Positions 1 through 61,995 of a DNA stretch of 64,000 nt are shown in pieces. The position numbers were made by a program, and so were the translations under genes. Origin of the DNA: an uncultured virus (IMG/VR IMGVR_UViG_2061766007_000494) (Duplodnaviria; Heunggongvirae; Uroviricota; Caudoviricetes); the IMG/VR virus record IMGVR_UViG_2061766007_000494. One strand, given 5' to 3'. Below the pieces are notes generated by a model. The model made no database searches. It had not been told where the DNA came from and was given only the letters and a program-made list of their open reading frames with translations. How positions within the stretch are numbered: the stretch's first letter is position 1; every line of letters starts with the position of its first letter.

Positions 1-23
1 AACACGCCAGGAGGGAAAAACCA

Positions 24-1621: not shown

Positions 1622-1736
1622 ATCAACGAAACTACTTCCCCGAATTTTTTGCTTTTTGCTCATTTTCCCGATGGTGTAATATCTCGGAAACCGTTGAAAA
1701 TAAAGGGATTTTGAAGAAAAAGCAATTCGCCAGGAA

Positions 1737-1820
1737 TCCGGGGAACCTATTTCGTTTTTCCGGGGAACCTATTTCGTTTTTCCGGGGAACCTATTTCGCT
1801 TTTCCGGGGAACCTATTTCG
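1737..1820 (+). repeat. Four tandem 22-bp iteron-like repeats (TCCGGGGAACCTATTTCGTTTT)
   Basis: Direct repeats with 22-bp period and no spacers, followed by an AT-rich tract; typical oriV layout. Confidence 0.8.
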
Positions 1821-2089
1821 CCCCGATCTCGGAAACCCTTGATATATAAGGCTTCAGGGGCATTTTGAGCCGTCCTAATAAAGATAATGCAATCATTATC
1901 TTTAATGCGCTTGCTCCCCCCGCTTGACGCGGGGGAGCTGTGCGAGGAAAATAGACGCAGGAACCGGAGAGGGCTTTTCCATTTATCGGCNNNNNNNNNN
2001 GAAAAGTCCTGCGCCGATTCCTGATTGGTCCAGGAACCGGCGCTTAATCTATGTGTCGGTTCCGTCATAACCGACAGAAGCTATAAATA

Positions 2090-2545
2090 AGGCAGCTCGG
2101 TTATGATGCTGGGGGCATACCGTTTATGAGGGTAGGTGTGTCCCCCGTGTCATACACGGGTTGCTTTTGCTATCCGGCAACCGACTACAATTTGTAGTGG
2201 TTCCCTCATGGATGAAGTGTGGCAAGCTCCTGCATTAGAATCTGCCCGGTAAAGATAGTCTATTTCTCCGAGAACCGCTAAATCTGATGCGGGTTACAAA
2301 TGATGTTGGTGGACAGGGCAGCGAAAGCTGGGGCTATTTGCTGGTATGTGTGCGTGGAACCTGGCGCGAAAAAGCACATACTGGACGCAAAGCGACGGGC
2401 GGCTCCGAGGAGCTAACGTTTCTTCTGGCGGTTGGTTCTTGCATCTGCAAGGGCTAACCGTCTCTACTCAGGGACTCACCAAAGAGCTAACACCGGAAAG
2501 GCCGGACACAGCAAGAAAAGATACGGAGCCCGGGAAAACCAAATA
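2090..2545 (+). ncRNA. Candidate large structured ncRNA (~450 nt)
   Basis: No credible ORF. Many helices with G-U pairs on the + strand, a GNRA loop (CAGC-GAAA-GCTG), a possible pseudoknot (ATGAGGG/CCCTCAT), and a downstream terminator. Confidence 0.55.
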
Positions 2546-2557
2546 AAGAGAAGCGTG

Positions 2558-2584
2558 AGAGCCGGGGATTAACCCGGCTCTTTT
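2558..2584. terminator. Intrinsic terminator, probably bidirectional
   Basis: AGAGCCGGG-loop-CCCGGCTCT followed by T residues, between convergent units. Confidence 0.7.
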
Positions 2585-2602
2585 CCGTAACTATCTTCAC
2601 TT

Positions 2603-2860
2603 TTAGCGACCAACTCGCAGCCCTAACAGCTTCAAATCTCCTCTGACCCCGTATTTTTTGAGGAGGTCGCTGTGCTGATTGAAACCGACTTCTTTCAAAC
2701 CGTCTCTCCTGAGAATCAGAAGCCTACGCTGGTACTCATCCCGGTCGAAACCACATCCAACGCAAGTGTGTCGGCGACGGCAGGCGTTTTNNNNNNNNNN
2801 NNNNNNNNNNNNNNNNNNNNNNNNNNNNNNNNNNNNGCTATACTCTGGCGTAAAGATCAT
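2603..2860 (-). CDS. Phage hypothetical protein, paralog of 21341..21541
   Basis: Shared CxxCGF...LRxDGLxE motif. Confidence 0.55.
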   Translation of the reverse strand: MIFTPEYSXXXXXXXXXXXXXXXXNACRRRHTCVGCGFDRDEYQRRLLILRRDGLKEVGFNQHSDLLKKYGVRGDLKLLGLRVGR

Positions 2861-3108
2861 TCGGCTTCACCGTCCTTTTCGTCCTCAATCATGAAGTCCG
2901 CGTAGTTGTATCCGTTCAGGAAGTCCAGGATTTCATCGCGCTGTTTCTCAAGGCGAACGACCTCTTTGGAGATTTCGCCAGCCTTGAGAAGCAGGGCGGT
3001 CACGACCGATTTCGGAAGCGCCTCGCAGAACCTCTTACGGAGGATTTCCTCCCGCGTCAAATCACAGTCGTCCGTAGCGATAAGGTTATAGTAGCTTTTG
3101 CTGTACAT
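2857..3108 (-). CDS. Phage hypothetical protein
   Basis: ORF overlapping the next gene in the operon. Confidence 0.55.
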   Translation of the reverse strand: MYSKSYYNLIATDDCDLTREEILRKRFCEALPKSVVTALLLKAGEISKEVVRLEKQRDEILDFLNGYNYADFMIEDEKDGEAE

Positions 3109-3181
3109 CGGTCTGCCCCCTCCTGTTCAAATCCTCTACGGATTGCGTCTTTCGTCCTGGCATTTGTTAATCACTTCCATA

Positions 3182-3670
3182 TCAGTCAACACCCTCTGGC
3201 TTTTTGATTCCGATACTTTCCAACCGATCCCATTGTGCCGACTGATACTCTGAGCACCACTTCTGCACGGTGGACTCACTTACGCCAAGCATCTCAGACA
3301 AATCCCGGTTGCTGTATCCATTCTCGTCCTTGAATGCTTGAATTGCGTCATGCTGTCTTCCCTGAAGCCTCGCCCTGGTTCTTGCCGCGCTTCTCTGCTT
3401 ATCCAAGCGTCTGCGCTCCAGGTACTCCGCTTCCGTCTCCGGGGGCTTTTTCGGTTTAGGCGTCGGTGCTTTTTTTGTGGTAGAAGCGCCAATTATGGAG
3501 TCTCCGAATGACGAGACTTGCCTCTTCTTTTTACCATACTGCCGTTGGGTACATCCAGTCCCGGATTTGCAACCGCGACTATGCCCGGTCACAGAAGAGA
3601 AGTTACACCCTTTCCCGTAATAAATGCGGATCAGGTAGACGCAACCCTTGCAGTAAGAATCAACCGGCAT
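3182..3670 (-). CDS. Cys-rich N-terminus plus XRE-type HTH protein
   Basis: C-terminal SNRDLSEMLGVSESTVQKW HTH. Confidence 0.65.
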   Translation of the reverse strand: MPVDSYCKGCVYLIRIYYGKGCNFSSVTGHSRGCKSGTGCTQRQYGKKKRQVSSFGDSIIGASTTKKAPTPKPKKPPETEAEYLERRRLDKQRSAARTRARLQGRQHDAIQAFKDENGYSNRDLSEMLGVSESTVQKWCSEYQSAQWDRLESIGIKKPEGVD

Positions 3671-3828
3671 TGTTTTCCCACCACCCTACGCTTAGTTCTC
3701 CGGTAAGCACGTTCCGCAGGACCTGGACCGTGCAGTTGGTATGAAGTTCCACCTCTTCGTAGAGATTTACTTCGACAATTTCTTCCTCCGCTGGAGTCAG
3801 AGTTTCGTCATTCATCGGTCTTCACCTG

Positions 3829-4134
3829 CTACTGTTCTTCTACAACAGCTGCTTTGAGAAGCAGCAGATAGTTGATGTGGTCTGTTATCTTTTCGTTCCA
3901 CAGTTCAATGGGATAGGAGTGCCCGCTCCGGCACATGTCATAAACGGAGATGGTGTGCTTCGCCATCATCCCGGCCAAGGCTTCTGTCGGAGCACATCCC
4001 ATCATTCCGGAAGCCGCCTTAAAATTGTGTAGGCGATCACCGCCGGTGGCGTACTCTCCCGCTTTCTTTAGCAGAATGCCCTTACAGGTTTCAATCTGAT
4101 CTTCAATAATCTTCTCGAACTGTTCGCTGTTCAT
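3829..4134 (-). CDS. Nucleotide-modification-associated (all-alpha pyrophosphatase-like) protein
   Basis: LLKKAGEYA..DRLHNFK...EKITDHINYLLLL motif; RBS GAAGGAG before ATG at 4134. Confidence 0.55.
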   Translation of the reverse strand: MNSEQFEKIIEDQIETCKGILLKKAGEYATGGDRLHNFKAASGMMGCAPTEALAGMMAKHTISVYDMCRSGHSYPIELWNEKITDHINYLLLLKAAVVEEQ

Positions 4135-4155
4135 TGGTATCTCTCCTTCATTTAT

Positions 4156-4178
4156 TGGCAGGGATGGCAGGATTCGGA
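4156..4178 (-). tRNA. 3' end of a tRNA (partial T arm, acceptor, CCA); remainder lies in the N-run
   Basis: Minus strand ..GAATCCTGCCATCCCTGCCA. Confidence 0.6.
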
Positions 4179-5042
4179 NNNNNNNNNNNNNNNNNNNNNN
4201 NNNNNNNNNNNNNNNNNNNNNNNNNNNNNNNNNNNNNNNNNNNNNNNNNNNNNNNNNNNNNNNNNNNNNNNNNNNNNNNNNNNNNNNNNNNNNNNNNNNN
4301 NNNNNNNNNNNNNNNNNNNNNNNNNNNNNNNNNNNNNNNNNNNNNNNNNNNNNNNNNNNNNNNNNNNNNNNNNNNNNNNNNNNNNNNNNNNNNNNNNNNN
4401 NNNNNNNNNNNNNNNNNNNNNNNNNNNNNNNNNNNNNNNNNNNNNNNNNNNNNNNNNNNNNNNNNNNNNNNNNNNNNNNNNNNNNNNNNNNNNNNNNNNN
4501 NNNNNNNNNNNNNNNNNNNNNNNNNNNNNNNNNNNNNNNNNNNNNNNNNNNNNNNNNNNNNNNNNNNNNNNNNNNNNNNNNNNNNNNNNNNNNNNNNNNN
4601 NNNNNNNNNNNNNNNNNNNNNNNNNNNNNNNNNNNNNNNNNNNNNNNNNNNNNNNNNNNNNNNNNNNNNNNNNNNNNNNNNNNNNNNNNNNNNNNNNNNN
4701 NNNNNNNNNNNNNNNNNNNNNNNNNNNNNNNNNNNNNNNNNNNNNNNNNNNNNNNNNNNNNNNNNNNNNNNNNNNNNNNNNNNNNNNNNNNNNNNNNNNN
4801 NNNNNNNNNNNNNNNNNNNNNNNNNNNNNNNNNNNNNNNNNNNNNNNNNNNNNNNNNNNNNNNNNNNNNNNNNNNNNNNNNNNNNNNNNNNNNNNNNNNN
4901 NNNNNNNNNNNNNNNNNNNNNNNNNNNNNNNNNNNNNNNNNNNNNNNNNNNNNNNNNNNNNNNNNCACCGAGCGAATTATGTCACGAATGCGCCTGTTTA
5001 CCTCCCGGGCTGGGACTAGCGCACCGTCAAAGAGCGACCTCC

Positions 5043-5116
5043 TGGAGCTTCCAGGTGGGGTTGAACCACCGTCTGCTGAGTACGAATCAGCCGTTCTACC
5101 GTTGAACCACGGAAGC
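5043..5116 (-). tRNA. tRNA-Thr(CGT)
   Basis: Cloverleaf with anticodon arm GCTGA-TTCGTAC-TCAGC and encoded CCA. Confidence 0.9.
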
Positions 5117-5241
5117 ATATACCCGCCGCGCTTGGCCTTATCACCGACCCTCGTACGTTTCGCGGCTTACCAAGCCGCCGCTATCCGGATAGCAGACACG
5201 AATCCAGCTTCTCGCGCTTCCTCCACCGCTTGCGGGGTTTG

Positions 5242-5331
5242 TGCCGGGAGCGGGACTCGAACCCGCATCAAGGGCATTCAGGAGCATATCCCTTCAAACT
5301 CCAAAGCTTTGCCACATTAAGCTACCCCGGC
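5242..5331 (-). ncRNA. tRNA-like RNA, class A (no canonical anticodon loop)
   Basis: Acceptor GCCGGGG/TCCCGGC, D arm GCTT/AAGC, T arm GCGGG-TTCGAGT-CCCGC; middle arm GGAG/CTCC with an enlarged loop. Confidence 0.7.
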
Positions 5332-5358
5332 ATGGTGCCGGTCTTTCCCGGCTGTCAG

Positions 5359-5515
5359 CCATTGATGAAATCCCCGCTTTTGGGACGCTGGATCGTTCCG
5401 CATTCACAATCATCGGGGCTTGGGGGCGTTCGTTCAGGACTTCCTACGCCATCCGACTTCTCCACTACTACGGTTTTTGCCGTAACGCTCTCGCTCGCGG
5501 TGTCCACGGAGGAAT
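5359..5515 (-). ncRNA. 157-nt structured RNA just 3' of tRNA-Leu, copy 1
   Basis: Near-identical to 32686..32842 (4 substitutions). Confidence 0.65.
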
Positions 5516-5517
5516 TG

Positions 5518-5593
5518 TGCGCCTGGTGGGAGTCGAACCCACAAATTTAACTGCTTTTGAGGCAGCCGCGTATACCAGTTCCGCTACAGGCGC
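5518..5593 (-). tRNA. tRNA-Leu(CAA)
   Basis: Anticodon arm GCTGC-CTCAAAA-GCAGT, TTCGACT T loop; short variable region, no encoded CCA. Confidence 0.85.
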
Positions 5594-5795
5594 ATAAAAG
5601 GCATGGCCTCCGGGGGTCTCCACCACGGAGGAATCCGGTTTCCCGGACCAGCGCCGCCATGCCATAGCCGCAAAAGAAAGGGAGGATGGGTTGCGGCCTG
5701 ACGCTTCTCAGAAAGGAGTCGCAAACGGAACGCCGAGCCGCGCACTCAGCACCCGCATTCTTATCCTACCACGAGCAAATAACATTTCTAAGATA

Positions 5796-5874
5796 AGGGG
5801 CGTCCCGGAGTCGAACCGGGGGAGGATCTCTGTCCTCAGCAACGCATTGCCGCGCCTCCCTGCGCCTCCGCCCC
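5796..5874 (-). ncRNA. tRNA-like RNA, class B (long variable arm, stunted anticodon arm)
   Basis: Acceptor GGGGCG/CGCCCC, D arm GCGC/GCGC, arm GGCAA-TGCG-TTGCT, variable arm GAGGA/TCCTC, T arm CCCGG-TTCGACT-CCGGG. Confidence 0.7.
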
Positions 5875-5917
5875 GTATCTACTCAAGTGGGAATGTCGGG
5901 TTTCCGACCACGTGGCA

Positions 5918-6336
5918 TCACCTCTTCTCCACCCAGATCTTCGGCTCAGGCCCCCAAATGTAAACCGGGTCTGCGTCAACCGTCCAGTCCTCCCGCTTGT
6001 CCTCCGGCAGCTGACGCCAGAAGAAGTTGCGGATGACCGAGTTCATATCCAGGGCAACCTGAACCTCTTTGGTTTTTCTGAAATGATCGATATCCCCACG
6101 GGACGCCGCCCTCATCGCCAAATCCATAAGTTCCCGCACAGCNNNNNNNNNNNNNNNNNNNNNNNTGTGTACTCGTAGTTTTGGAACGCCAGAGCATCCG
6201 AGAGTTCCCACGTCTGCCCCATTCGCAGACGTGCGTATTCCTCACAGGCGCTCTGCAAAAGCCGGAGCTGACGCTCGTTCAGCGTGATGGTGTACTTCTG
6301 CTCCGCAGGAGTCTCAGGCTTCTTTCTCGTGCTCAT
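5918..6336 (-). CDS. Phage hypothetical protein (frame break at an N-run), paralog of 33695..34111
   Basis: KYTITLNERQLRLL...VDADPVYIWG.EPKI shared with the paralog. Confidence 0.75.
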
Positions 6337-7019
6337 TTCTCCATCTCCTTCCGAAGACTGTCCTTGATGTAATAGTCAACGCCAAGCGTCTTGCACAAGG
6401 CTTCCGCTCTGCACCCGAACTCCTTCCAGTTTATGCCCGACGGATAATAGTTCAGCTTTCCAATCTTCACCTTATCCATCGCTCTGTGAAAACAAGTTAT
6501 CAATTTGATAACCTCATTGGCGTTAAGCACCGGCTCAAACGATACCCAAGTGTGAATACCGTGTGCTTTCGCCACTCTCAAGGTGTTGATGATACTGTAC
6601 ACAGAATCGGTTGACTGGCTTCCGTCCATAGTCACGCCATACCAGTCCTCCCCGTCCAGCAGGTCGAAGTCCCGGCTCCCGTCGCCCTTCGTGAGTATCT
6701 GGACGTGATTGCCGTACTCTTTCAGGAGCTTGATGATTTCCCTCGTGGCCGTGCTGTCATAGCCCGTCGGGTATGGATCGCAAGTGAAGCACAGATGAAT
6801 GAGTTTACCGGAGATTTGCTCCTTATCGAGCTGCTTCTTGACTTCTTCGACGATTCCGGGGCGCGGCTCCACATTGCTGTGAAACTGCTCTCGATCCCGG
6901 TGGAGCACCCCCGGCGCGAAACAGTAGTAGCAGCGGTGGGGGCATCCGGTGTAGATATTGAGCGCCAGGTCCCCATATTCCTTTGCCGCGCCCTTTGGCT
7001 CATAGATTGGCGGTTTCAT
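6333..7019 (-). CDS. Radical SAM protein (spore photoproduct lyase-like family)
   Basis: NIYTGCPHRCYYC (CxxxCxxC), CDPY, QILTK and WVSFEP motifs. Confidence 0.8.
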   Translation of the reverse strand: MKPPIYEPKGAAKEYGDLALNIYTGCPHRCYYCFAPGVLHRDREQFHSNVEPRPGIVEEVKKQLDKEQISGKLIHLCFTCDPYPTGYDSTATREIIKLLKEYGNHVQILTKGDGSRDFDLLDGEDWYGVTMDGSQSTDSVYSIINTLRVAKAHGIHTWVSFEPVLNANEVIKLITCFHRAMDKVKIGKLNYYPSGINWKEFGCRAEALCKTLGVDYYIKDSLRKEMEK

Positions 7020-7221
7020 TATCTTTCACTCCTTCCNNNNNNNNNNNNNNNNNNNNNNTCCGCATACCGGGCAGAATCTGATGGGGAAGCTGCCGTGTTC
7101 CCCCTTATCTTCTTCGTCTTCCAGGTATCGCAGGAATAAGACGTGATAGGGAGGATCGGCGGTTTCGTCTTTCTCCCCGGTCGTCAGGTCGATAGCCGGG
7201 AGCGGCGTTATCTTCACACAG

Positions 7222-28978: not shown

Positions 28979-30294
28979 TCAAGTATTTTCTTGAAATTTC
29001 TTTGAAAAACTGAGAAGGTCATCCTTTTCATTGGGAACCTCGCCTTCAAGCACGGCGCTGAGAGCGGCCAAGAGGATAGTGCCAACCTGCTTACCTTCGG
29101 GGACACCGATAGACATTACATCGTTACCGTTGATAGCGAGGTCTTTAAGGGTGAAGCATTGTCTCTCCCGAACGATTTCCCATGCGAGGTCGAGGGTTTC
29201 GTTACGCCTCTTGATACGGGACTCGTTGATAGCGTGAGCCTGCATATCCGCAAGGCGAACGTCCATCAGGCGGAGGAACTGGTCGAAGCCAATTTTGTTG
29301 AGCCACCTCTTAACCACGCGGGGAGTCGGGTCGATGGTCGCGTCATGGTACAGCACAAGTTCAGTGATAGCTTTTTGGCTGTCGTTATCAAAACGGAGCC
29401 GTTTAAGAACCTGGGCCGCAATTTCGCTGCTGGGGACACCGTGACCGTGGAAGTGACCGCCATTCTCGTCTTCGGTATAGCACTGGGGTTTTCCAATGTC
29501 GTGGAGGAGAAGGGCAACCTTAACAATTGCATCGTTGCCTTTATAGTTGGCGACTGCGTGCGCAATGTGGTCGTAGACGGTGTATTGGTGATACTTGTTG
29601 TTCTGGTCGAATCCCACACACGGCTTCAATTCGGGGATGATAGTCGTAATCACATCCGGGAAGTCCAGAAGAACCCGCAGAACATTCTCTCCATTTAAGA
29701 GCTTGAGTAGTTCAGCCTGAATTCTCTCGGCGGAGATGTGCGCAAGAAGCCCCGCGTTATCGTGGATAGCCTTGGTAGTCTTCTCCCCAATTTGGAAGCC
29801 ATAGGTGGAGGCGNNNNNNNNNNGCTGAACCTAGCGTTGGGGTTTCCGACGCAGTTTATGGTTCCTCTGCTCAGGTCATCTATGCCGCTGTAAGGGTCTA
29901 CAATGCCCCTGGATTCGTTGTAGGCGATAGCATTGATAGTGAAGTCCCTGCGAGCCAAATCCTCCCTGATGTCACGCACGAACGTCACGCTGTCGGGTCG
30001 CCGGTTATCGGAGTAGTCACCGTCCACGCGGAAGGTAGTAACCTCGTAGGGCATCCTGCCCATAATGACAGTGACGGTGCCATGCTTCAGTCCGGTGTCG
30101 ATGATTCTCTTATTGGGGAAGCAGGCTTTGACTTCCTCCGGGGTAGCGGCGGTGCAAATGTCCCAATCACTCGGTCTGATACCAAGCAGGCTGTCTCGGA
30201 CACAGCCGCCGACGATATAAGCTTCGTAGCCGCAGAGCGCAAGTTGCTGTATAATCCTTTGCGCTCCGACAGGCATAGCAATCAATTTATCCAC
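28979..30294 (-). CDS. cca: CCA-adding tRNA nucleotidyltransferase with HD domain (one gene; apparent frameshift is the 10-N gap)
   Basis: VGGCVRD, DWD, DLARRDFTINA, ISAERI, LLHDIGKP; sequence after the gap runs in frame into the 28979 ORF. Confidence 0.9.
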
Positions 30295-31009
30295 CCAGTG
30301 CCCTCCTGTTGACGCTCATTACAAAATCCTCGACCTTGTGGTAGTCGGGTGCTTTGGGTAGGCTGGTGTTCTTCTTCGCGTAGTCTAGCCGAGCCTCGAA
30401 GTCGTTGACCATCTGGAAGAACTCGTCCTGATAGGTTCCGTCCGGATTCTGATACTTTCCGTTGCGAATGCTCAGGAGGAAATCCCGGTCGTTCTCCCGG
30501 TAGGTGCAGATTTGTTCCTTTTCCAGAATATCCAGGCACATAAGGTAGAGCCGGATAAGATGCATCGCGTGTTTGTTGAGGTGGTTATCGTCCTTCTTGT
30601 TGCGATGGTTCAGCTTCTCATAGTTGCCGATGATGTTGGTCATGTCGTTGACCATGCTGTGAAGTTCACGAGCGGGATAGTGGCGGAGAGTGATGTCGGC
30701 AAACACTTCCCTGTCCAGGTCATCCCGGCTGCTTTCATCGGTATAGAGCTTGATGCTCCCGAACGGGAATTCAGTATACTTCCGCTCGAAGGAAGCCATA
30801 GAGTTCTCCATAGCCTTCAGCATATGCTCCTCCCGCCTCGCCTGGGGCAGAGCGTCCCTTGCGATAGCGTTCTCAAGGCGGCGGAGCTGTTGATTGGCAT
30901 AGCCCCCGAAGGAAGCAACCGCTCTCTGAGACAGGAACAGGTGTGCGTTGGCGATAAACTCCCTGCCGATGTCGGTGAGGACGATATAGTGTTCAGGCTT
31001 GCAGCCAAG
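30287..31009 (-). CDS. Pol-beta-superfamily nucleotidyltransferase (RlaP-like), 5' end lost in the gap
   Basis: HLFLSQRAVASFGGYANQQLRRL...NKHAMHLIRLYLMCLDIL. Confidence 0.7.
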   Translation of the reverse strand, partial: LGCKPEHYIVLTDIGREFIANAHLFLSQRAVASFGGYANQQLRRLENAIARDALPQARREEHMLKAMENSMASFERKYTEFPFGSIKLYTDESSRDDLDREVFADITLRHYPARELHSMVNDMTNIIGNYEKLNHRNKKDDNHLNKHAMHLIRLYLMCLDILEKEQICTYRENDRDFLLSIRNGKYQNPDGTYQDEFFQMVNDFEARLDYAKKNTSLPKAPDYHKVEDFVMSVNRRALGG

Positions 31010-31019
31010 NNNNNNNNNN

Positions 31020-31042
31020 CCTTACCGCTTGGCTACATCCCC
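31020..31042 (-). tRNA. 5' fragment of a tRNA cut by the gap
   Basis: GGGGATGTAGCCAAGCGGTAAGG. Confidence 0.6.
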
Positions 31043-31084
31043 GTATTTCACAATGTAGAAGTGGAGGAAGGTGATATTGCAGTC

Positions 31085-31345
31085 CATGCGCCCCCCGGAG
31101 TCGAACCGGGAGACAAGCGGACTCGAACCGCTCTCGCACACCTTCGCGGGACCGTCCCGCGTGGACACCCTTCTGATTTGCACAGGCGGCACGTCTGCCG
31201 ATGTGCTTGTCGATCACGGAGCAAAGGAGCTGGTGTCCCCCTGTGATGCGTCCCAGTTGTCTATCGCTCTCCTCGCGCCTGACTCTCACAGGCGGCACGT
31301 CTGCCGGTGCTATGCGGGGAATAGGTTGCTCACCCCGCGATGCGG
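31085..31345 (-). ncRNA. RNA built from repeated D-loop/T-loop modules
   Basis: Two copies of GCAC-..GGCAGAC-GTGC, each followed by a T-loop-like hairpin, then two tandem TTCGA T arms. Confidence 0.55.
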
Positions 31346-31542
31346 TCATTCGCCCCGTTAATCCGCTTTGTACGGTCTTTCCTCTGTACGCAGCCCGACC
31401 GTCAGTTCCCGCGTACCGCTATTCGCGGGTTGCGACCCCGCCCCGTCTCTTTTGCAAAGTCTGTCTGNNNNNNNNNNNNNNNNNNNNNNNNNNNNNNNNN
31501 NNNNNNNNNNNNNNNNNNNNNNNNNNNNNNNNNNNNNNNNNN

Positions 31543-31723: not shown

Positions 31724-31796
31724 TGGGGCTTCCGGGTGGAGACGAACCACCGTCTGCTGAGTACGAATAGCCGTTCTACCGTTGAACTACGGAAGC
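31724..31796 (-). tRNA. Second tRNA-Thr(CGT) with a 1-nt deletion in the anticodon stem
   Basis: Paralog of 5043..5116; stem GCTA/TCAGC. Confidence 0.7.
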
Positions 31797-36064: not shown

Positions 36065-37222
36065 ATGAGAAAGAATAATAAGGGTGCGAACGGCGGAGGA
36101 AGCATCAAACATCGGGACGATGGAAGATGGGAAGGGCGCTACACCTATTACGATGAATACGGGAACCAAAAGCGGGGGAGTGTCTATGCGAAGACCCAGG
36201 GTGAATGCCGAAAGCTCCTTGCTACGAAGGTAATGGAGATAGACAGAACCGGGACCTATAAGGAGCCAAGCTCGTTTACCTACAGGGAGTGGTTTGCTCT
36301 GTGGGTGGAGTCCAAATCCGTGAATTGGAAGCCGAACACTAAATACAACTACTGCCAAAAGGCGGAGAAGTATATCATGCCCAAGATAGGGAATCGGAAG
36401 CTGACCGAAATAACGGCAGTGATGTGTCAACGCCTTATCAATAGTTTTACTACCGAAAGGAAACTCAACCCAAAAACGGTGAAGAATCTTCATTCTATCC
36501 TCCATTCCAGCCTCGAAGGTGCTGTAAAGGCAAACGAGATTCCTCATAATCCGGCAAGTGGATTAGAGCTACCAAGGATTACAAAGCCTATTCTACACCC
36601 TCTAATGGATGACGATATTGGTATTCTCCTGAAGGCGGCGGACGGCAGTGAATACTACGACTTCATTGTGGTTGCAATTTTCACGGGTATGCGTATCAGC
36701 GAGCTTATCGGTCTGAAGTGGAAGGATGTGTCGTTCAAGGACAGGCTTATTACGGTGTCCCATCAACTGCAACGCTCCGAAGATACAGGTGAGTATCAGA
36801 GTGTCACCCCCAAGAACGGGAAGCCTAGAATAGTCCCTATCGCGCAATCAATGGTGTCGGTCTTTAAGGGCATCAAGAGCAAGCAGGCTGAACGACAGCT
36901 ACGGGCAGGCGAGCTGTGGGAGGGCGAAGGATACGTATTTACAGACGAACTCGGACATCACTATAAGCAGTCCACCGTTCAGCATCACTTCAAACAGATT
37001 GCTCGGTCAGCAGGCTTTGATGAAACCAGGTTTCATGACCTCCGGCACTCCTGTGCGATATTGGCTCTACAGACAGGTGCAGACATCAAATCGGTTTCGG
37101 ATATGTTGGGTCACTACAGTACCGCGTTTACAATGGATGTCTACGGCGACGTTTCCGAATCCATGAAGGAGCAGACTAGGAATACGATGGAACGGGCGTT
37201 TCTTGCGACAGTAAAGAAATAG
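36065..37222 (+). CDS. int: Tyrosine integrase
   Basis: TGMRISE, HDLRHS and LGH...TMDVY catalytic motifs. Confidence 0.95.
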   Translation: MRKNNKGANGGGSIKHRDDGRWEGRYTYYDEYGNQKRGSVYAKTQGECRKLLATKVMEIDRTGTYKEPSSFTYREWFALWVESKSVNWKPNTKYNYCQKAEKYIMPKIGNRKLTEITAVMCQRLINSFTTERKLNPKTVKNLHSILHSSLEGAVKANEIPHNPASGLELPRITKPILHPLMDDDIGILLKAADGSEYYDFIVVAIFTGMRISELIGLKWKDVSFKDRLITVSHQLQRSEDTGEYQSVTPKNGKPRIVPIAQSMVSVFKGIKSKQAERQLRAGELWEGEGYVFTDELGHHYKQSTVQHHFKQIARSAGFDETRFHDLRHSCAILALQTGADIKSVSDMLGHYSTAFTMDVYGDVSESMKEQTRNTMERAFLATVKK

Positions 37223-50551: not shown

Positions 50552-51040
50552 ATGGAACGGGCCGCGTGGGAACGGCTGGTTGACGAAGGGGAGAACACAG
50601 TACAGTATCGTTACTTCAGCGAGTACCGTGACACGTCCCCTGAGAACAGGTCAATCGTCGCTCTGTGCGATAAGTTTGGCGTTGATGAAGAAACGATGAG
50701 TTCGTACCGATGGAAGTTCCATTGGGACAAGCGGGTTGAGAAGTTCGATGATTTCGTTGACAAGGAAGCGAGGAGAAAGGGGCTTATCAAGGCTGAGAAG
50801 ATTCGGCTTGCGAGCCTGTCGCTTTCCGAGAGGATGCTGGAGCTTGCTGAACAGAAGATGTCTTCAATGAAATTCAACGAGCTTACCGCAAAGGAGACCC
50901 GCGAATACATCAAGGCGGCGGTGGCGCTGGCCGAGGTGTTCAAGGATGACAATTCCAAGCAGCGGGATTATCTGGATTCCGAGGATACGAGCGCCGAGGT
51001 TGTTATCTACCTTCCTGAGATTGACGGGGAGGTGGGGTAA
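50552..51040 (+). CDS. terS: Terminase small subunit
   Basis: Directly upstream of terL; C-terminal VVIYLPE. Confidence 0.6.
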   Translation: MERAAWERLVDEGENTVQYRYFSEYRDTSPENRSIVALCDKFGVDEETMSSYRWKFHWDKRVEKFDDFVDKEARRKGLIKAEKIRLASLSLSERMLELAEQKMSSMKFNELTAKETREYIKAAVALAEVFKDDNSKQRDYLDSEDTSAEVVIYLPEIDGEVG

Positions 51041-52441
51041 ATGGCAGTCGTTCTAAAGCCTCAGCCGGGGCCGCAGGAGCGATTCCTTTAGTTCGCTTCA
51101 AATGCTGATATCGCTATATACGGCGGAGCAGCCGGTGGTGGAAAATCTTGGAGTTTGCTATTCACTCCGCTGAGATACATCAAGACTCAGGGGTTCGGGG
51201 CTACGATATTCCGAAAGAACTACAATCAGATATTCGCCCAAGGCGGACTTTGGGATGAATCTGTGGGTATGTATGGCAGCATACCATACACCTATTCCAG
51301 CCAATCAAGAGGTCTTTGGATTTTCAAAGACAAGAACGGTGTTCCGGTATCAAAGATAACCTTTGCCCACATTGAGCGTGACGAAGACCTTTCCTCATGG
51401 CAAGGCTCGCAGCTTGCGATGATAGGATTTGACGAGCTGTGCCATTTTACCAAGAAGATATTCTTCTATATGCTGTCCCGTAACCGTTCAACCTGTGGCG
51501 TAAAGCCGTTCGTGAGGGCTACCTGCAACCCAGATGCTGACTCTTGGGTATCCGAGTTCATCGAATGGTGGATAGACCAGGATACGGGCTATCCGATACC
51601 TGAGCGGAGCGGGAAAATCCGGTGGTTTATCCAACGGGACGATGTAATCTACTGGGCGGACAACAAGGAAGACCTGTGGAGCGATTTTGAGCTTATCACA
51701 GAAGAAGAACGGGCGGAACCGAAATCGGTGACGTTCATTGCATCTTCTGTCTACGATAACAAGGTACTTCTGCAAACTAACCCTTCCTACCTGGCTAACC
51801 TGAAAGCCCTTCCTACTATCGACCGGGAGCGGCTGCTGATGGGCAACTGGAAGATTAAGGCGAAGGCGGGACTATACTTCAAACGCGAGCAGGTTGAAGT
51901 AATCAACGAAGTCCCGAACGATATTACTTGGGTGTGCAGGGCGTGGGACATCGCGGCTACCGGAGAGAAGGGAACTGGCGACCCCGACTACACCGCAGGC
52001 GTGTTGATGGGACTTAGGAAAAACAAGACCGTGGTAGTCCTTGACGTTATCAACAGGCGTGTGAAGGCCGGTGACGTGGAGAAGCTGGTTAAGAACACGG
52101 CTGATTCGGATAAAGCAAAATACGGCTCTAGGTACAGAATCAGAATTCCGCAAGACCCCGGAAGCAGCGGAAAGATTCTGGCCGGTAATTTCGTTAAGAT
52201 GCTGGCTGGCTATGCGGTGAGGGCATTGCCTGTGACGGGAAGTAAAGAAGTACGGGCGACACCTTACGCTGCGTATTGGCAGCACGGAAATGTACAGGTA
52301 CTACGCGGAGAATGGAACGAGGCGTATTTCTCGCAACTGGAATCGTTCCCAAGCGGGAAGCACGATGACATGGTGGATAGTAGTTCCGATGCGTACAATG
52401 AGCTGACATCACCGAAGTTCGACCTATCCAGTATGATATGA
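51041..52441 (+). CDS. terL: Terminase large subunit with an in-frame TAG at codon 17 (51089..51091)
   Basis: PQPGPQERFL*FASNADIAIYGGAAGGGKS; GFDEL, RATCNP, RAWDIA and HDDMVD. Confidence 0.9.
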
Positions 52442-52451
52442 GGGATTAAGA

Positions 52452-54410
52452 ATGCGAGACATAAAGAAAGATATTGCCAACTACCGGGCCAAGCGGAAAT
52501 CTCGCATGGACGAGAGAAAGGCCCGGTTCGACTTTGAGGTTGGTGTGTATCCTGCTGACGAGACGGGCGACAAGGAAGGTCATGGCAACACTAGGCTTCC
52601 TTACGGGCTGTGCAAAGCTGCTGGTATAGATACCGAGGGCATGACCCCTGCGGATGCGTGGTCAGCGTTGGAGGACAAGACTGGTATCAAGGCGGACAAG
52701 GCTTACGACAAGATTGAGAAGGACGGCGACGCTAAGAAGCTCGCAAAAGAAGCCGAAAAGCTGTCGAAGAAAAAACCGAAGAAGAAAAAGGAAGAGCCGG
52801 AGGGGGAGGCTGGAACCGAAGAGTTCATTGAGCCTGTGGTGACAGCACCCGATAAGCCTGTGGCGGCTCTGACCCCGACTACTTTCAAGTCAACTATTAG
52901 CAGCCTGTCTTCTACGTCGCATTCGGTCAAGGATTTTTCCAAGGCTATAGAAAAAGAAATCATGCCCCGAATCAAGAAGGGTCAGACGCTTGATGCTGGG
53001 GGACACTCCTACTACTGCAACGGCGAGGGTTTTGAGACTGAGAAGGGCGAGGAGAGAACAAAGGCATTCGTGGCGTATCGTCTGGCTAAGTACGCAAAGG
53101 AGAGCGGCAGTTCACTTTCCCTGAAAACCGAATCGTCCCTTCACAGTTCGAAGGAAAGTGAGAAGGCAGCAATGAAATCCGCTGCTGCGACGCAGTTCAG
53201 GAATGCGATGATGGCGGCTAGAAATACCGTTATGAGCGGTGTGACACATGCTGCTGGTAAATGCGCAAAGCACGTTGAGCTGGTTCTGGATGAACTGCCA
53301 ATTGGCTCCAAGGTCAACTACGTGCTTGTGAACAGCGACGGTACGACTGGGAAGAAGGCAACCGTTGAGAAGGTGGGGGATAATCAATACTACCTGAACA
53401 ACGGGACGAAGAAGAACGCGGAGCAGGTATCGTGGTATCTGACCCGTAATCTTGAAGTGAGTTCGATTCCGAGCTTGGAGGCGGATGACCTGTCCCTCCC
53501 AAGTGCTTTGCTGACTACCGGAGGCTATAAGGGCGTTCCTGAGAGCGTAACTATGTCGAAGACGGCTCCGAGTTTGATGTCACACACAAAGGTTTCTCCC
53601 GCGACGAAGGCTGCGCTGAAGCCCGGTACGCCTATCACGGTGAAGAAAACTGCTTCTGATGCAGGCAACACACCGACTATGAAGTTCGGTAGTAAAGCAC
53701 GTTCCCTGTGGCGTGCGGTAAACTCCAAACTGTTCAAAAGTTCGGATGTCAAGGCTGTTGAAAGCGGTATGAAGCGGCTGATGGACGAAAACGAGTTCTG
53801 CATGAGCCGGAGTGGGAACACGCTGAAAATGATTTTGGAAACTGGCTTCAAGAATCAGATAGAGGTTCTTGAAGGAGATGGAACTTCCGATTCAATCAGC
53901 TACGCAAATCCAGATGAACGTAGGAAAGCTTCACAAAGATTGTTCGGGACACCGTTGGACACGAAATCGGAATCCTACGAGAAATATGGCTTCCTTGGTA
54001 ATCCTTGGAGCTACGACGGCGATTACGGTTCCACCTACGGCGACGTAACTCTAGTGTTCGATAAGGACAAAATCAAGAATCGCACGACGTATACCTTGGG
54101 CGACTCCCTTGGCCCTTCGGTAAACAGGGGAATGGTTGCCGGACAGGTGGGCGACAATCCTACGTTCGAGGGCTGGTATCTGTCGAGGCCGAAAGCAAAG
54201 GCTTTGGATATGCTCAAAAACGGTGCAAGCCTGAGTGAGATTCTTTCCTATACGAAGAATGCGTACCTTGAACTTCAGTTCCACGGCGAGCTGACCATGA
54301 GTGATGTGAAGTATATCGTATTCAAGAGCGAGTCTGCATATAAGAACTACGTCACCGCCGAAATGCAAAAGGCATTTGATGACCTCGGTATCGAAGTTTC
54401 AATCAAGTGA
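52452..54410 (+). CDS. Head-module effector 1 with a C-terminal DUF3626-like (putative ADP-ribosyltransferase-fold) domain
   Basis: GFKNQ, YEKYGFL, YGDV, TYTLGDSL, YLELQFHG; shared basic leader. Confidence 0.6.
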   Translation: MRDIKKDIANYRAKRKSRMDERKARFDFEVGVYPADETGDKEGHGNTRLPYGLCKAAGIDTEGMTPADAWSALEDKTGIKADKAYDKIEKDGDAKKLAKEAEKLSKKKPKKKKEEPEGEAGTEEFIEPVVTAPDKPVAALTPTTFKSTISSLSSTSHSVKDFSKAIEKEIMPRIKKGQTLDAGGHSYYCNGEGFETEKGEERTKAFVAYRLAKYAKESGSSLSLKTESSLHSSKESEKAAMKSAAATQFRNAMMAARNTVMSGVTHAAGKCAKHVELVLDELPIGSKVNYVLVNSDGTTGKKATVEKVGDNQYYLNNGTKKNAEQVSWYLTRNLEVSSIPSLEADDLSLPSALLTTGGYKGVPESVTMSKTAPSLMSHTKVSPATKAALKPGTPITVKKTASDAGNTPTMKFGSKARSLWRAVNSKLFKSSDVKAVESGMKRLMDENEFCMSRSGNTLKMILETGFKNQIEVLEGDGTSDSISYANPDERRKASQRLFGTPLDTKSESYEKYGFLGNPWSYDGDYGSTYGDVTLVFDKDKIKNRTTYTLGDSLGPSVNRGMVAGQVGDNPTFEGWYLSRPKAKALDMLKNGASLSEILSYTKNAYLELQFHGELTMSDVKYIVFKSESAYKNYVTAEMQKAFDDLGIEVSIK

Positions 54411-54849: not shown

Positions 54850-56511
54850 ATGGGCGTGGTTGTCTACATTGATGAATACAGGAAGCGCAGGCAGAAGCGT
54901 CTTGATGAACGCGGTGTGCGAATGGACTACGAGGTAGGCAACTTCCCTGGAGACGAAGCTGGAGACAAGGTTGGAAAGCATGGAGGAGCTTCTACGAGGC
55001 TTCCCTACGGGCTTTGTAAGGCAGCGGGTATAGACACCACCGGAATGACTCCGAGCGAAGCGTGGGCGGCTCTGGCAGGTGAGACGGGCATCAAGCCGAA
55101 GGATGCCTACAAGGAGCTTGAGAAGAAGGGTTCCGCTAAGGACTTGGCGAAGGAAGCCAAGGAGAAGGCGAAGGAAGTCCCTGAGAAGGAGAAGCTGACC
55201 GGCAGTGAGTATCTTGTGAACGCTCCGAAAACGAAGGATGCTGCGGACAGGTTCAAGGCTGCGATTGATATGTCCACGGACAGGGAGACGGTGGAGAAGG
55301 CTCTGACCGGCGTTCCTGTGGGAGGTGTGGTTCATTACACTCCGATAGACAAGCACGGGACAATCACCGAGAAGGACGCAACTGCGAAGAAGAACGCGGA
55401 CGGTACGTTCACTACGGATATCGGGACTACGGTAAGTGCGGAGCTGTTGAGCTACTGGGTGAACCGGGACAGGAAGCGCGGAAAACCGTTCAGTCTGGAA
55501 GCGGATGACTTCACGATGCCTACTGGTGCAACACTGGCTACACCTCCTGCGCCGAAAGCTCCCGAAGCTCCGAAGACCGCTGAACCTGCGAAAGCTGCTG
55601 AACCTGCGAAAGCTCCTAAGAAGACAACGAGCAAGAGTAAGTCCCCGGCACATTTGGTGCTTCCTGCGGCTCCGGCGATTACTGGGACGAAGATTCCGGT
55701 GAGGACAACGAAAGAAGTTGACATCCCGAAGCTGAAAACGGTTATAAACGCTCAGGCAAAACGCGATGACTGGGCAGCGAAGCATCCGAAATATGAGCCT
55801 TACAAAGAAAAGCTTACAGCGGGAATGAAGTACCTGTTCGACAAGAATGAGTTCTGCATGAACTTCAGACCGCAGGTGCTCGAAAGCATTCTCAGAAAGG
55901 GATTCCTGAATCAGATGCAGACCGCAAAAGACCCTGAAATTTCGCACAAGACGGGCGGTTCGTACACACCTGATGGGCGGAAGAAAGCGTCTGCGAATAT
56001 GTTCGGTACTCCGAAGGGCACGAAGGCGGAGGACTATGAGCGGTACGGATATCTTGGAAATCCTTTGAATCCCAAGACGGAGGCCGAGGGATACGCGAAG
56101 TGGTACGGCAGCGTTACGGTACTGTTCAAGAAGGACAACGTGAAGAATAGAGTAACGTACACCTACTCCGACAGCCTTGGCATGGGACATTCCGGGAGTG
56201 CTGTACCTGGCAAAGACGGAGACGATACATCATGGGAGGGAGCTGGATTCTCCGGTTTTTCGTACTATGGAGGAGATAAACCTTCTCACATGATGCAGCA
56301 GGTTATGGATGCTCCAAGCAAGAAGCTTGGGTTGGAGGACGTGGTAGACACCGGATACTTGGAGCTTCAGTATCACGGCGATTTGACAATGAGCGACGTA
56401 GATACTATAGTGTTCAGAAGCCCCAGCGATTACAGCTATGTGACCCCGGACATACAGGAGGCGCTTGACGCACTTGGAGTTAAAGTGGTCAAGCTGTGGG
56501 AAAAAAAGTGA
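54850..56511 (+). CDS. Head-module effector 2, paralog of effector 1
   Basis: Same leader, RLPYGLCK module, and GFLNQ/YERYGYL/YLELQYHG domain. Confidence 0.6.
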   Translation: MGVVVYIDEYRKRRQKRLDERGVRMDYEVGNFPGDEAGDKVGKHGGASTRLPYGLCKAAGIDTTGMTPSEAWAALAGETGIKPKDAYKELEKKGSAKDLAKEAKEKAKEVPEKEKLTGSEYLVNAPKTKDAADRFKAAIDMSTDRETVEKALTGVPVGGVVHYTPIDKHGTITEKDATAKKNADGTFTTDIGTTVSAELLSYWVNRDRKRGKPFSLEADDFTMPTGATLATPPAPKAPEAPKTAEPAKAAEPAKAPKKTTSKSKSPAHLVLPAAPAITGTKIPVRTTKEVDIPKLKTVINAQAKRDDWAAKHPKYEPYKEKLTAGMKYLFDKNEFCMNFRPQVLESILRKGFLNQMQTAKDPEISHKTGGSYTPDGRKKASANMFGTPKGTKAEDYERYGYLGNPLNPKTEAEGYAKWYGSVTVLFKKDNVKNRVTYTYSDSLGMGHSGSAVPGKDGDDTSWEGAGFSGFSYYGGDKPSHMMQQVMDAPSKKLGLEDVVDTGYLELQYHGDLTMSDVDTIVFRSPSDYSYVTPDIQEALDALGVKVVKLWEKK

Positions 56512-59667: not shown

Positions 59668-61995
59668 TTGGCAGATATCGAAAAATACGAAAAAGGGTAT
59701 GAGCGGATGCTTCACAAAGCAACCGGGCAATCTGTCAGCTCATATCACGCGGATTCCGCCGACTTCCGGGAAGACGGCTATGTGAATATGCTCAACAAGT
59801 ACGGCACATCTCAGGACGTGACGGAGCATTATCACTTTGTACCGGAGTTCCCTGTACCAGATGTGGTGCTGGCGGCGAACTACGAATCAAATGGACTGTT
59901 TGCCAAAATCATAGATACTCCTGCTGAGGAAGCTACGAAGCACGGGTTTGAGTTGGAAGGAATCACAGACAAGGTTATCGAGGACTATGCGATAGATATG
60001 TTGGATGACCTTGACTGGGAGGAAGTTGCTACCACCTGCATCAAGTGGGCGAGGCTATTTGGCGGCTCAATGGCGGTGATGCTGATAGACGATGGCCGAG
60101 GGCTTGAAGAACCCCTTGATTGGAAGCACATCAAGTCTATCGAAGACATCAGAGTGTTCGACCGTTCGAGAATCCAGCCTGATTACGGAAGCATCTATCA
60201 CTACGACCCAAGGAACAAAATACGTGGTTCCCGCTTGGGAATGCCCGAATACTACCAGGTATTCAGCCGAGCGGGAAACTTTGTGGTTCATGACAGCCGA
60301 TGCCTCACCTTCCAGAACGGGATTCTTCCTGAGATAACGACTAATTCCCTGTACCGCGTCTGGGGCGTTCCAGAATACCTCAGAATCAACAAGGCTATAA
60401 GGGATGCGGAAGTAGCCCACGGAAGTGCCCCGAAGCTCCTAGACCGCTCTGTGCAGCCCATATACAAAATGCGGGACTTGTCCGCAGAGCTGGCTACAGA
60501 AGAAGGGGAAGACCGGGTAATTCGGAGATTACAGGCTATCGACATGGCGAAGGGTATGATGAATACTATCGCAATCGACAGCGAGGGCGAGGAGTACGAC
60601 TTCAGAACCTTCCAATTCTCCGGCGTATCGAGCGTGATTGATTCAAGCTGCAACTTCCTGTCCGCTGTGACCTCAATTCCGCAAACGATACTGTTTGGGC
60701 GTTCTCCTGCGGGTATGAACGCAACCGGACACGCGGACTTTGAGAACTACTACAACTACGTTGAGCGGATTCAGAAGAGGATGCTTCGGAAGAATCTGCG
60801 ATACCTCTTGTCTATCATCTTCAAAGCGGGAATTGCTCAGAAGAAGATAGATGAAATGCCAACGATAAACATTAAGTTCAATCCTCTGTGGAGCCTTACC
60901 GAAGAAGAAGAAACCGCATTGGAGCAGCAGAAGGCGCAGGCGCAGCTTGCAAGGGCGCAGGTTGCCCAAGCCTATGTTGCTATGCAGGCGCTTGACCCAA
61001 GCGAGGTCAGAAATAGTCTTGCCAAGAGCGATGACTTCGATGTGGAAACCATGCTGGATGACTACACGGAGGAAGAGCTTGAAGAATTCGCCCCGCAGGG
61101 AGGAGACCCGATGGCCGCTATGATGGGCGGCGGCGGTGGTAATCCGATGGCTGCTATGATGGGCGGCGGGGTGCCTGATTCCCCGAAGGAATCCAGAACG
61201 GGAGAATCGGGGGCGAAGGTAGAACTTGAAGAATTGCAGCAGGCCCACGAAATCGACAAGGCGCAAGAAGAACTGAGGCTTGCCCATGAAGTCGATAAGG
61301 AGCAGGAAGAACTTCAGCTCGCTCATGAAGTTGATAAGGAATTGGAATCCGATGAATTGGAACCGGAAGAAAACACCGACGAAGCGGAGGATTCCGAGAA
61401 CCCTTATGAAACTACCTACTGGAAGAGCCGGGTGATGGATGTTGCGAATCATACCGGCGCTGACTACGAAGACAGCGAATCCATGCTTGTCGCTATCGAA
61501 GATTTCATAGAATCTCCCGACCGCATTGTGAGCGTCCAGAACGGCCTTAGCGAAGAGGAATATGCTGACGAGTACGGTGATGATTACGACATTTCTGACG
61601 CAGAGGGAAAGCTTCTGGAACGCTACATCGCTATGTCCTTCAAATGGCGGGGAGGAAACCTGTTCAGGGTGATTAACGTCCCCGCAGAGGAAGCGGTTGA
61701 ACTTCTGAAGAACATGGAAGAAGGACGAAAGTTCGCCTTTGACGTTACGACCCTTTGGACTGTCCGTGGTGCTTTGAAAGATAGCGATTTTGAAGAGATA
61801 AAGGAAAAGGGCGAAACGCCTGTGGTGTTCGTCTGGAAGCGTGCAAAGAGCGGAACTGCGGTGACTTACCTTGCCCCTGGAAGCGCAGAAAAGGTAATTG
61901 CAAGCCGGAATCTTATGCTTGCGGCTAGAAAGGCATATGAACTGGACGGCGTAGTGTTCGTGGAGTGCAAAGAGGTGAGCGATAATGAGCTATGA
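59668..61995 (+). CDS. Portal protein (DUF1073 type) with a long C-terminal extension
   Basis: YESNGLFAKIID.PAEEA, WARLFGG, IPQTILFGRSPAGMNATG..D.ENYY, FNPLW. Confidence 0.9.
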   Translation: MADIEKYEKGYERMLHKATGQSVSSYHADSADFREDGYVNMLNKYGTSQDVTEHYHFVPEFPVPDVVLAANYESNGLFAKIIDTPAEEATKHGFELEGITDKVIEDYAIDMLDDLDWEEVATTCIKWARLFGGSMAVMLIDDGRGLEEPLDWKHIKSIEDIRVFDRSRIQPDYGSIYHYDPRNKIRGSRLGMPEYYQVFSRAGNFVVHDSRCLTFQNGILPEITTNSLYRVWGVPEYLRINKAIRDAEVAHGSAPKLLDRSVQPIYKMRDLSAELATEEGEDRVIRRLQAIDMAKGMMNTIAIDSEGEEYDFRTFQFSGVSSVIDSSCNFLSAVTSIPQTILFGRSPAGMNATGHADFENYYNYVERIQKRMLRKNLRYLLSIIFKAGIAQKKIDEMPTINIKFNPLWSLTEEEETALEQQKAQAQLARAQVAQAYVAMQALDPSEVRNSLAKSDDFDVETMLDDYTEEELEEFAPQGGDPMAAMMGGGGGNPMAAMMGGGVPDSPKESRTGESGAKVELEELQQAHEIDKAQEELRLAHEVDKEQEELQLAHEVDKELESDELEPEENTDEAEDSENPYETTYWKSRVMDVANHTGADYEDSESMLVAIEDFIESPDRIVSVQNGLSEEEYADEYGDDYDISDAEGKLLERYIAMSFKWRGGNLFRVINVPAEEAVELLKNMEEGRKFAFDVTTLWTVRGALKDSDFEEIKEKGETPVVFVWKRAKSGTAVTYLAPGSAEKVIASRNLMLAARKAYELDGVVFVECKEVSDNEL

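Follow-up and report, generated by a model that had tools for sequence, protein, structure and literature searches.

The window analyzed here is the whole 64,000-nucleotide stretch of the uncultured virus record IMGVR_UViG_2061766007_000494 (IMG/VR), and the subject of this analysis is its terL gene, which is interrupted after 16 codons by an in-frame TAG, the only TAG that the gene contains. The product of terL is a Terminase_6N/6C large terminase (T4-like TerL) with an ATPase domain and an RNase H-like nuclease domain (Pfam: Terminase_6N, PF03237, 8.1e-25; Terminase_6C, PF17289, 5.4e-17), and it matches the PHROG 979 terminase large subunit at 1.4e-156. The gene is part of a prophage that otherwise looks intact, with genes for an integrase, a methyltransferase, an Erf-like protein, a replication initiator, a DnaC-like loader, SSB, TerS, TerL, the portal protein, and head morphogenesis. 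The features of the locus are collected in Table 1.

Table 1. Features of the terL locus and of two other prophage genes in the window
Feature	Position	Strand	Remarks
terS-like gene	50552-51040	+	PHROG terminase small subunit, 3.4e-11; its TAA abuts the terL ATG (TAAATG)
Ribosome-binding site GGAGGTGGGG			just 5' of the terL start
terL	51041-52441	+	ATG start; TGA stop at 52439-52441
First 16 terL codons MAVVLKPQPGPQERFL	51041-51088	+	bear the family-invariant P-Q-x-G-x-Q motif
Shine-Dalgarno (SD)-like AGGAG	51075-51079	+	in Gln-Glu codons; ends 6 nt 5' of CTT
Proposed take-off codon CTT (Leu16)	51086-51088	+	
In-frame TAG (codon 17)	51089-51091	+	kept in the relative L214 and in the X3 contig of another study
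Proposed landing codon TTC	51092-51094	+	CTC in the 94%-identical relative L214
terL body	51095-52441	+	resume codon GCT to TGA; Walker A and nuclease domain
Walker A GGAAGGGKS	51122-51148	+	in FASNADIAIYGGAAGGGKS, 3' of the TAG, frame unchanged
Integrase gene	36065-37222		
Portal gene	59668-61995		

The letters at the site are CAG GAG CGA TTC CTT TAG TTC GCT TCA AAT GCT GAT, with the TAG upstream of Walker A and the frame unbroken, just as described in the sequence-only reading of this DNA, which had proposed that ribosomes hop over the stop. From the TAG to the end of Walker A, the terL frame has no ATG, GTG, or TTG; the first canonical in-frame start downstream of the TAG is a TTG at 51155, and given that it lies beyond Walker A, a downstream start would drop the ATPase P-loop. 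In an AlphaFold model of P0004, a 77%-identical relative (mean pLDDT, the predicted local distance difference test score, of 81), residues 11-17 form a short helix that includes the conserved glutamine, and the site falls at the end of this helix, four residues ahead of strand 1 and the P-loop. The top structural matches of the model are the D6E, Sf6, and T4 large terminases. A sequence search of the PDB with the terL protein or a 16-sequence profile returned no match, and the GenBank phage collection yielded distant matches only (71-76% identity over 11-14% of the query). Scanning the window for other lone stops that join two long open frames revealed nothing comparable.

The TAG is real and inherited, and the terL gene that bears it is under strong purifying selection. 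Contigs of four runs, from four studies besides the likely source, bridge 51089-51094 with no indel there, a form of independent support that comes from contigs and cannot reveal minor variants. The X3 contig differs from the window over 50552-51927 by one letter, at 51871, and thus has the exact TAGTTC; the six bases are also present in the X5, X7, and X8 contigs, where they may include a substitution. Among the 33 listed differences in the terL body, mostly from the X8 contigs, 30 are at third codon positions. (The X8 strain also carries a 6-nt insertion, two extra codons, at 51024, near the C-terminus of the terS-like gene.) In the metagenome contig L214, terL is ~94% identical to that of the window in DNA and 98-99% identical in protein, with a TAG at the same codon. 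The two genes differ at 82 codons, 78 synonymously and 4 non-synonymously, and this ratio implies that the protein was under selection while the lineage bore the stop. Among the four non-synonymous differences is the first codon past the stop, which is TTC in the window and CTC in L214. For the read support that the sequence-only reading had asked for, the contigs of the four studies stand in; for the conservation of TAGTTC, which it had also asked for, L214 keeps the TAG but not the TTC.

Relative to the family, TAG TTC is six bases too many. Full-length homologues (57-77% identity) share the pattern PQ.GPQ..F[LM] followed by seven residues and [IV]YGG, and the window has nine residues at that place. 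From the second Gln of the G.Q motif to Walker A there are 14 residues in all 137 scored unique uninterrupted relatives; two rows stand outside this count, L076 with one residue more and L152 with two residues fewer. The suggestion of the sequence-only reading that TAG TTC is a 6-nt extra is thus confirmed by an invariant spacing to which the window adds two residues, and the predicted product of a hop would restore the 14 residues.

Stop-led inserts also occur in related terL genes. We gathered 246 loci around TerL relatives from GTDB genomes, IMG/VR, and metagenome contigs, and then made three degenerate pattern scans of IMG/VR that were designed to find interrupted forms. Including the window, 36 contigs are interrupted, by TAG in 35 and by TAA in one, and the inserts fall into six types, in each of which an in-frame stop comes right after the last family-aligned codon. 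In nearly all inserts, the last triplet ahead of the resumed coding sequence can pair anew with the tRNA that reads the pre-stop codon: the take-off and landing pairs are CTT/CTT, CTT/CTC, CTT/CTG, ATT/ATC, GGT/GGT, GGY/GGA, and ATG/GTG, with CTT/TTC in the window.

Type A, to which the window belongs, is TTY CTT TAG YTN after F-L (6 nt, in frame; nine contigs), and its landing codons are TTC in the window, CTC in L214 and L253, CTT in L165/L166, L072, L247, and L302, and CTG in L249. Type A-Ile is TTC ATT TAG AAA ATC AGC (9 nt; L292), where a move from Ile to Ile would restore FI + SSPASIV + IYGG. Type A3 is TTT ATG TAG TG GCN, a frame-changing 5-nt insert in 15 contigs, including a metagenome-assembled genome of Clostridia (L001) and two human-gut contigs, and landing on GUG restores FM + ATPA. 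Type B, TAT GGC GGY TAG GA GCN (in one case GGT TAG GT), follows IYGG with 5 nt in eight contigs and would land on GGA or GGT. Type C, GGC TAG CCA CGC GGG after IYG (9 nt, in frame; two contigs), has an ambiguous landing codon, and type D, GGT TAA C GGA AAA inside Walker A (7 nt; one contig), is tentative. The protein of L292 (IMGVR_UViG_3300011005_000113) diverges from the family right after the Walker A lysine of GGSAGGGK (AQPEDE...), which may reflect an intein or a second interruption.

The scans bear on how specific the stop and its flanks are. When TAA, TGA, and TGG were allowed at the TAG position, six of eight matches had TAG, all as TTT CTT TAG CTN, and the other two were Trp codons in uninterrupted genes. 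A scan with any NTN before the stop and anything after it gave TAG in 14 of 14 matches. With any two bases allowed after the type-B stop, all eight matches had G first, which completes a Gly triplet with the G of the TAG. Uninterrupted relatives use CTT for 24 of the 95 Leu codons at the take-off position; in type-A lineages the codon is always CTT. Stop-led inserts within the first ~35 codons are found for 15 of the 172 unique gene bodies, a frequency that is inflated because one query, P0030, is itself of type A3; less biased scans found 2 of 46 and 13 of 80 loci interrupted. Among 399 scored genomes in the class of the L001 genome, the family occurs in four only, none of them newly interrupted.

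A tblastn search with the full protein against all 247 sources found lesions in the gene body (~430 codons, 172 unique genes) only in L050, which is split across several frames, and in L142, which has a ~14-nt deletion with no stop at the break. The other changes are a large insert in L048 and inteins at Walker A in L021, L062, and L063. Random lesions thus look unlike the stop-led inserts. Gene calls are N-terminally short in 13 of the 120 top database homologues, with the cause confirmed only for the types for which DNA was obtained; truncated calls among close relatives include P0002 (428 aa) and P0003 (392 aa). Further short calls are P0042, P0055, P0057-P0059, and P0071 (418-428 aa, with P0042 and P0057-P0059 at 428 aa), which begin after Walker A and are 65-67% identical, and the 444-aa call P0039, whose N-terminus resembles an in-frame reading of the GGY TAG GA loci.

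On a FastTree phylogeny of 136 unique bodies, the interrupted state requires at least seven changes. On this tree L214 is the sister of the window, a single clade unites types A and C, and types A3 and B mix within one clade, well supported, whose closely related members have the insert at either site. The first 16 codons of type A3, compared among the lineages L010, L215, L088, L057, and L001, are 85-92% identical among the first four, with bodies at 67-81% and the upstream 300 nt at 61-78%; pairs with L001, the fifth lineage, are at 68-75% in the first 16 codons. When the A3 genes are compared with the closest relatives that are uninterrupted or of type B, identity is 46-66% in the N-termini and 67-81% in the bodies. 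The N-terminal ~50 nt of type A3 would have been either moved by recombination or held by a constraint at the nucleotide level, for example, a recoding signal. The insertion point of the inteins lies within 3-21 nt of inserts of types B, C, and D. The intein-like insert at Walker A in L062, L063, and L021 (~200 codons before the match start) ends in ...THN followed by T or S, and the database proteins P0077 and P0109 bear LAGLIDADG/Hom_end domains.

Taking these comparisons together, we consider it probable that terL works and that its full-length product arises through a short translational hop from CUU over UAG onto UUC. This hop had been put forward from the window alone, and the relatives speak for it: CTT TAG CTC stands in L214, CTT TAG CTN stands in seven viral contigs, and 5-, 7-, and 9-nt stop-led inserts in related terL genes end in a triplet that matches the codon before the stop. 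In the window, the take-off codon stands directly 5' of a slow A-site codon, the stop, and the landing triplet appears, judging from its letters, able to re-pair. We propose that a peptidyl-tRNA-Leu on CUU would unpair with UAG in the A site, that the mRNA would slide by 6 nt, and that the tRNA would re-pair with UUC, where a GAG-type anticodon would form one G-U pair, at the first position, and two Watson-Crick pairs, at the other positions. Decoding would restart at GCU and give ...PQERFL-ASNADIAIYGGAAGGGKS (FLASNAD) with the invariant spacing of the family. The junction predicted from a hop is FLASNADIAIYGG, and that predicted from readthrough is FL-x-F-ASNAD. Terminating ribosomes would release a 16-residue peptide only. 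The landing of type A3, from AUG to GUG, would need the same kind of first-position pair as the window.

Several points weigh against this proposal. That ribosomes hop rather than read through, how efficiently they would do so, and for what role are matters that we infer. The landing codon of the window is UUC and not a Leu codon, so re-pairing would need the first-position G-U pair, and this allele could hop less well than L214 with its CUC; the TTC allele does circulate in another study too (the X3 contig). We have taken the host tRNA-Leu for CUU to be of the GAG type, and the pairing is a predicted one. Insertion or deletion of DNA through microhomology would likewise leave like triplets at both ends of an insert; the in-frame inserts could formally be read through, at the price of two added residues; and in type C no landing codon brings the spacing back cleanly. 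The relatives sampled are biased as well, given the type of one query (P0030) and the aim of the pattern scans.

The search for stimulatory signals adds to these points. Folding 105-nt segments of seven type-A sequences gave no significant structure (z from -1.2 to +0.7). The AGGAG, which the sequence-only reading had offered as an internal SD-like element, does end 6 nt before the CUU as that reading said, but it is not conserved and is explained by the Gln-Glu codons. An SD-like 4-mer is found in four of six type-A lineages (it is absent in the other two), in 47 of 138 uninterrupted genes, and in 44 of the 58 uninterrupted genes that encode QE there, so there is no enrichment beyond the codon effect. 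Because it is equally common in the uninterrupted QE-encoding genes, the AGGAG is probably a by-product and incidental. Given the absence of significant structure and the lack of conservation of the SD-like element, no dedicated stimulator has been identified, and synthetic hops without stimulators are inefficient, in the low per cent range. The conservation of the A3 N-terminus is one hint of a nascent-peptide signal. Several minimum-free-energy folds show a 5' hairpin that ends just before the CTT, without statistical support.

Among the other explanations, amber readthrough by a suppressor tRNA, a near-cognate tRNA, or pyrrolysine fares best, though we judge it unlikely. It would lengthen TerL by two residues (x-Phe), placed after the Q-motif helix and before strand 1, and it is compatible with the unchanged frame, with the conservative change between strains of the residue after the stop (F vs L), with a possible suppressor or pyrrolysine system in the host genome, and with N-runs of 75-787 nt in the window that could hide a tRNA. 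It does not account, however, for a post-stop codon that is always a pairing partner of the pre-stop codon, for CTT as the sole Leu codon before the stop, or for the 5-, 7-, and 9-nt versions at the same sites in sister lineages, and the 5- and 7-nt inserts, which are out of frame, are beyond rescue by readthrough. The spacing invariant in 137 of 137 scored relatives also argues against a product longer by two residues, as does the use of TAG to terminate 4 of 30 prophage genes. No tRNA with a CUA anticodon was found among the eight tRNAs in the readable part of the window, where the N-runs limit such searches, or in four related phage records. With one TAG in terL, four genes that end in TAG, and no such tRNA found, we also reject a reassignment of TAG (code 15).

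Still less probable is switching at the DNA level, in which the insert would be gained and lost between short direct repeats and a minority of genomes with an intact terL would supply the enzyme. Every insert is flanked by 2-3 nt of microhomology (CTT...YTN, GG...GG, TG...TG), and the seven or more state changes on the tree, with inserts at different sites in closely related genes, would suit such switching. Yet the insert is present in the contigs of four independent studies and in L214, across ~6% nucleotide divergence, and microhomology does not explain why an in-frame stop opens each insert (TAG in 35 of 36 and TAA in one).

A tolerated or decaying lesion, whether a mutational scar in a prophage for which terL has become dispensable or a stop bypassed by a start downstream, we regard as more improbable again. 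That the element is a prophage with an integrase fits this view, as do the truncated calls P0002 and P0003; selection does not, given the 78 synonymous against 4 non-synonymous codons between two TAG-bearing strains and the conservation as protein of the first 16 codons in stop-bearing relatives. A downstream start would lose the P-loop, and five related phage records have no Terminase_6N match apart from their interrupted gene, including one record (G405) with direct terminal repeats that CheckV rates as 100% complete. Reinitiation in the window was rejected for want of a start codon; it is conceivable for type A3, whose TAGTG holds a GTG, and for L072 and L253, where a GTG stands in frame three codons ahead of YGG. 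Finally, an assembly or sequencing artefact, for which the many N-runs in the window might speak, has a negligible chance of being correct given that the X3 contig is identical at the site, three more studies keep the six bases, and L214, P0002, and P0003 derive from other assemblies; the contigs of other studies and the 78 of 82 synonymous codons exclude both the assembly error and the inactivating mutation that the sequence-only reading had listed as alternatives.

Some observations on the surroundings of terL stand apart from these questions. Between terL and the portal gene lie two large paralogous open reading frames on the plus strand, at 52452-54410 (652 aa) and 54850-56511 (553 aa), which share N- and C-terminal sequence, have no Pfam match, and match phrog_8314 (function unknown) weakly (1.7e-07). 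A tRNA at 31727-31796 on the minus strand, in a host tRNA cluster by an N-run, is assigned a four-base anticodon, 'cgta', by ARAGORN; in the Rfam alignment it is Thr(CGU)-like and one base short on the 5' side of the anticodon stem (50.1 bits). Thirteen N-runs (10-787 nt) lie among tRNA genes at 1-7058 and 29814-31542 of the window and look like masked stretches near rRNA/tRNA operons. The locus L266 of record G405 (direct terminal repeats, 53.8 kb) has two tRNA-like genes between terS and a CTT TAG CTC terL, at 1501-1576 and 1647-1716: a tRNA-Thr(TGT) and a second gene (48.8 bits) with an anticodon arm 3-4 nt short that ARAGORN does not call.

Returning to the hop, we posit that its likeliest role is to throttle or gate the production of TerL at little cost, given that the product of failure is tiny. 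The clustering of the inserts near the N-terminus would mean that a failed hop costs a peptide of 16-35 residues and leaves no truncated terminase to poison the motor, and, if hops were rare, the supply of a nuclease required in few copies would be held down. On this reading the window belongs to a broader group of naturally occurring short bypass sites that is apparently undescribed. A bolder reading, which we offer as a speculation more likely to fail than to stand, is that these are the first natural stop-hops, a recurrent and partly mobile class in the terL genes of gut and rumen phages with an adaptive purpose. The class might then comprise at least six designs at four codon positions in the first ~35 codons, with at least seven state changes, and the ATG TAG TG design might travel with a conserved ~50-nt N-terminal cassette, which may carry its own stimulatory signal. 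As for the purpose, we can only conjecture that it might be to gate the TerL nuclease/ATPase on release-factor-1 activity or on the stage of infection, or, on an equally tentative footing, to break the recognition site of a homing endonuclease, by analogy with what has been proposed for T4 gene 60 and in view of the Walker A inteins of some relatives, 3-21 nt from three of the insert positions.

If the hop proposed for the window is true, these genes form a family of natural sites that vary in take-off codon, landing codon, and gap (5, 6, 7, and 9 nt), and such variation would open the rules by which a peptidyl-tRNA re-pairs, and its contest with release factor 1, to direct tests. Phages would then also have a new means of adjusting how much of a packaging nuclease is made, or when. 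Such terminases come out split or truncated in gene calling, which affects phage detection, completeness calls, and phylogenies based on terL.

The known systems that resemble the site also differ from it. The prfB frameshift likewise has CUU before a stop and an SD-like sequence upstream. The spacing of the SD sequence is 3 nt in prfB; in the window it is 6 nt. The shift-proneness of CUU before a stop, to which the sequence-only reading had appealed, does not help here, and we reject a prfB-style +1 shift, given that its frame meets a stop after 28 codons and does not include Walker A. Gut phages in which stop codons are reassigned, with TAG read as Gln (code 15), are reportedly the subject of a preprint by Borges et al. 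What they share with the window is a TAG that stands in frame in a late gene, in a phage associated with the gut. In reassigned phages such TAGs are numerous, and a suppressor tRNA usually accompanies them, unlike the one TAG in terL here.

Gene 60 of phage T4 is similar in that UAG directly follows the take-off codon, the landing codon is matched, and one polypeptide is made from interrupted coding; its Gly take-off codon is shared by the GGY TAG GA type. Gene 60, however, skips 50 nt, whereas the gaps here are 5-9 nt (up to 12 nt if type C lands on GGG), and it needs a take-off stem-loop, a nascent-peptide signal, and other mRNA elements, whereas the seven type-A folds show no significant structure. 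With a gap of 6 nt and not ~50 nt, and no significant fold, we reject a programmed bypass of the gene 60 type for the window.

Another parallel is the terminase of the Streptomyces phage phiHau3, a candidate for UUA-triggered bypass (Smith et al. 2013; Antonov et al. 2023, PMC10732093), where Antonov et al. support bypassing of two 10-nt UUA-led blocks. There, too, short non-coding blocks interrupt a large-terminase gene whose flanks are contiguous in relatives, and a regulatory role has been proposed. The phiHau3 blocks begin with the rare sense codon UUA, lie at two internal sites, and occur in 3 of 100 genes of actinophages; the blocks described here are stop-led, lie in the first ~35 codons, and belong to gut and rumen phages that probably infect Bacillota. 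A 2024 preprint from the group behind PMC5009743 (bioRxiv 10.1101/2024.12.09.627546) gives as the only natural cases gene 60, the phiHau3 terminase candidates, and yeast (Magnusiomyces) mitochondria. Searches of the open-access literature turned up no natural stop-hop, and none described for the terminases of gut or rumen phages.

Synthetic stop-hops stand with gene 60 and the phiHau3 candidate as the closest precedents. The review by Atkins et al. 2016 (PMC5009743) describes stop-hops in Escherichia coli with matched codons flanking the stop (Weiss et al. 1987); tRNA hopping (O'Connor et al. 1989) is treated there and in bioRxiv 10.1101/2024.12.09.627546. The 2016 review gives natural in-frame stop hopping as not known. 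In the synthetic constructs, as in the hop proposed here, the peptidyl-tRNA pairs again 5-6 nt further on, so that a single amino acid is specified by 9 nt, and the CTT TAG CTT of the relatives is exactly the synthetic design. The difference is that the synthetic stop-hops are reporters, whereas the sites described here are natural and conserved in an essential phage gene, where the window has the near-match UUC as its proposed landing codon.

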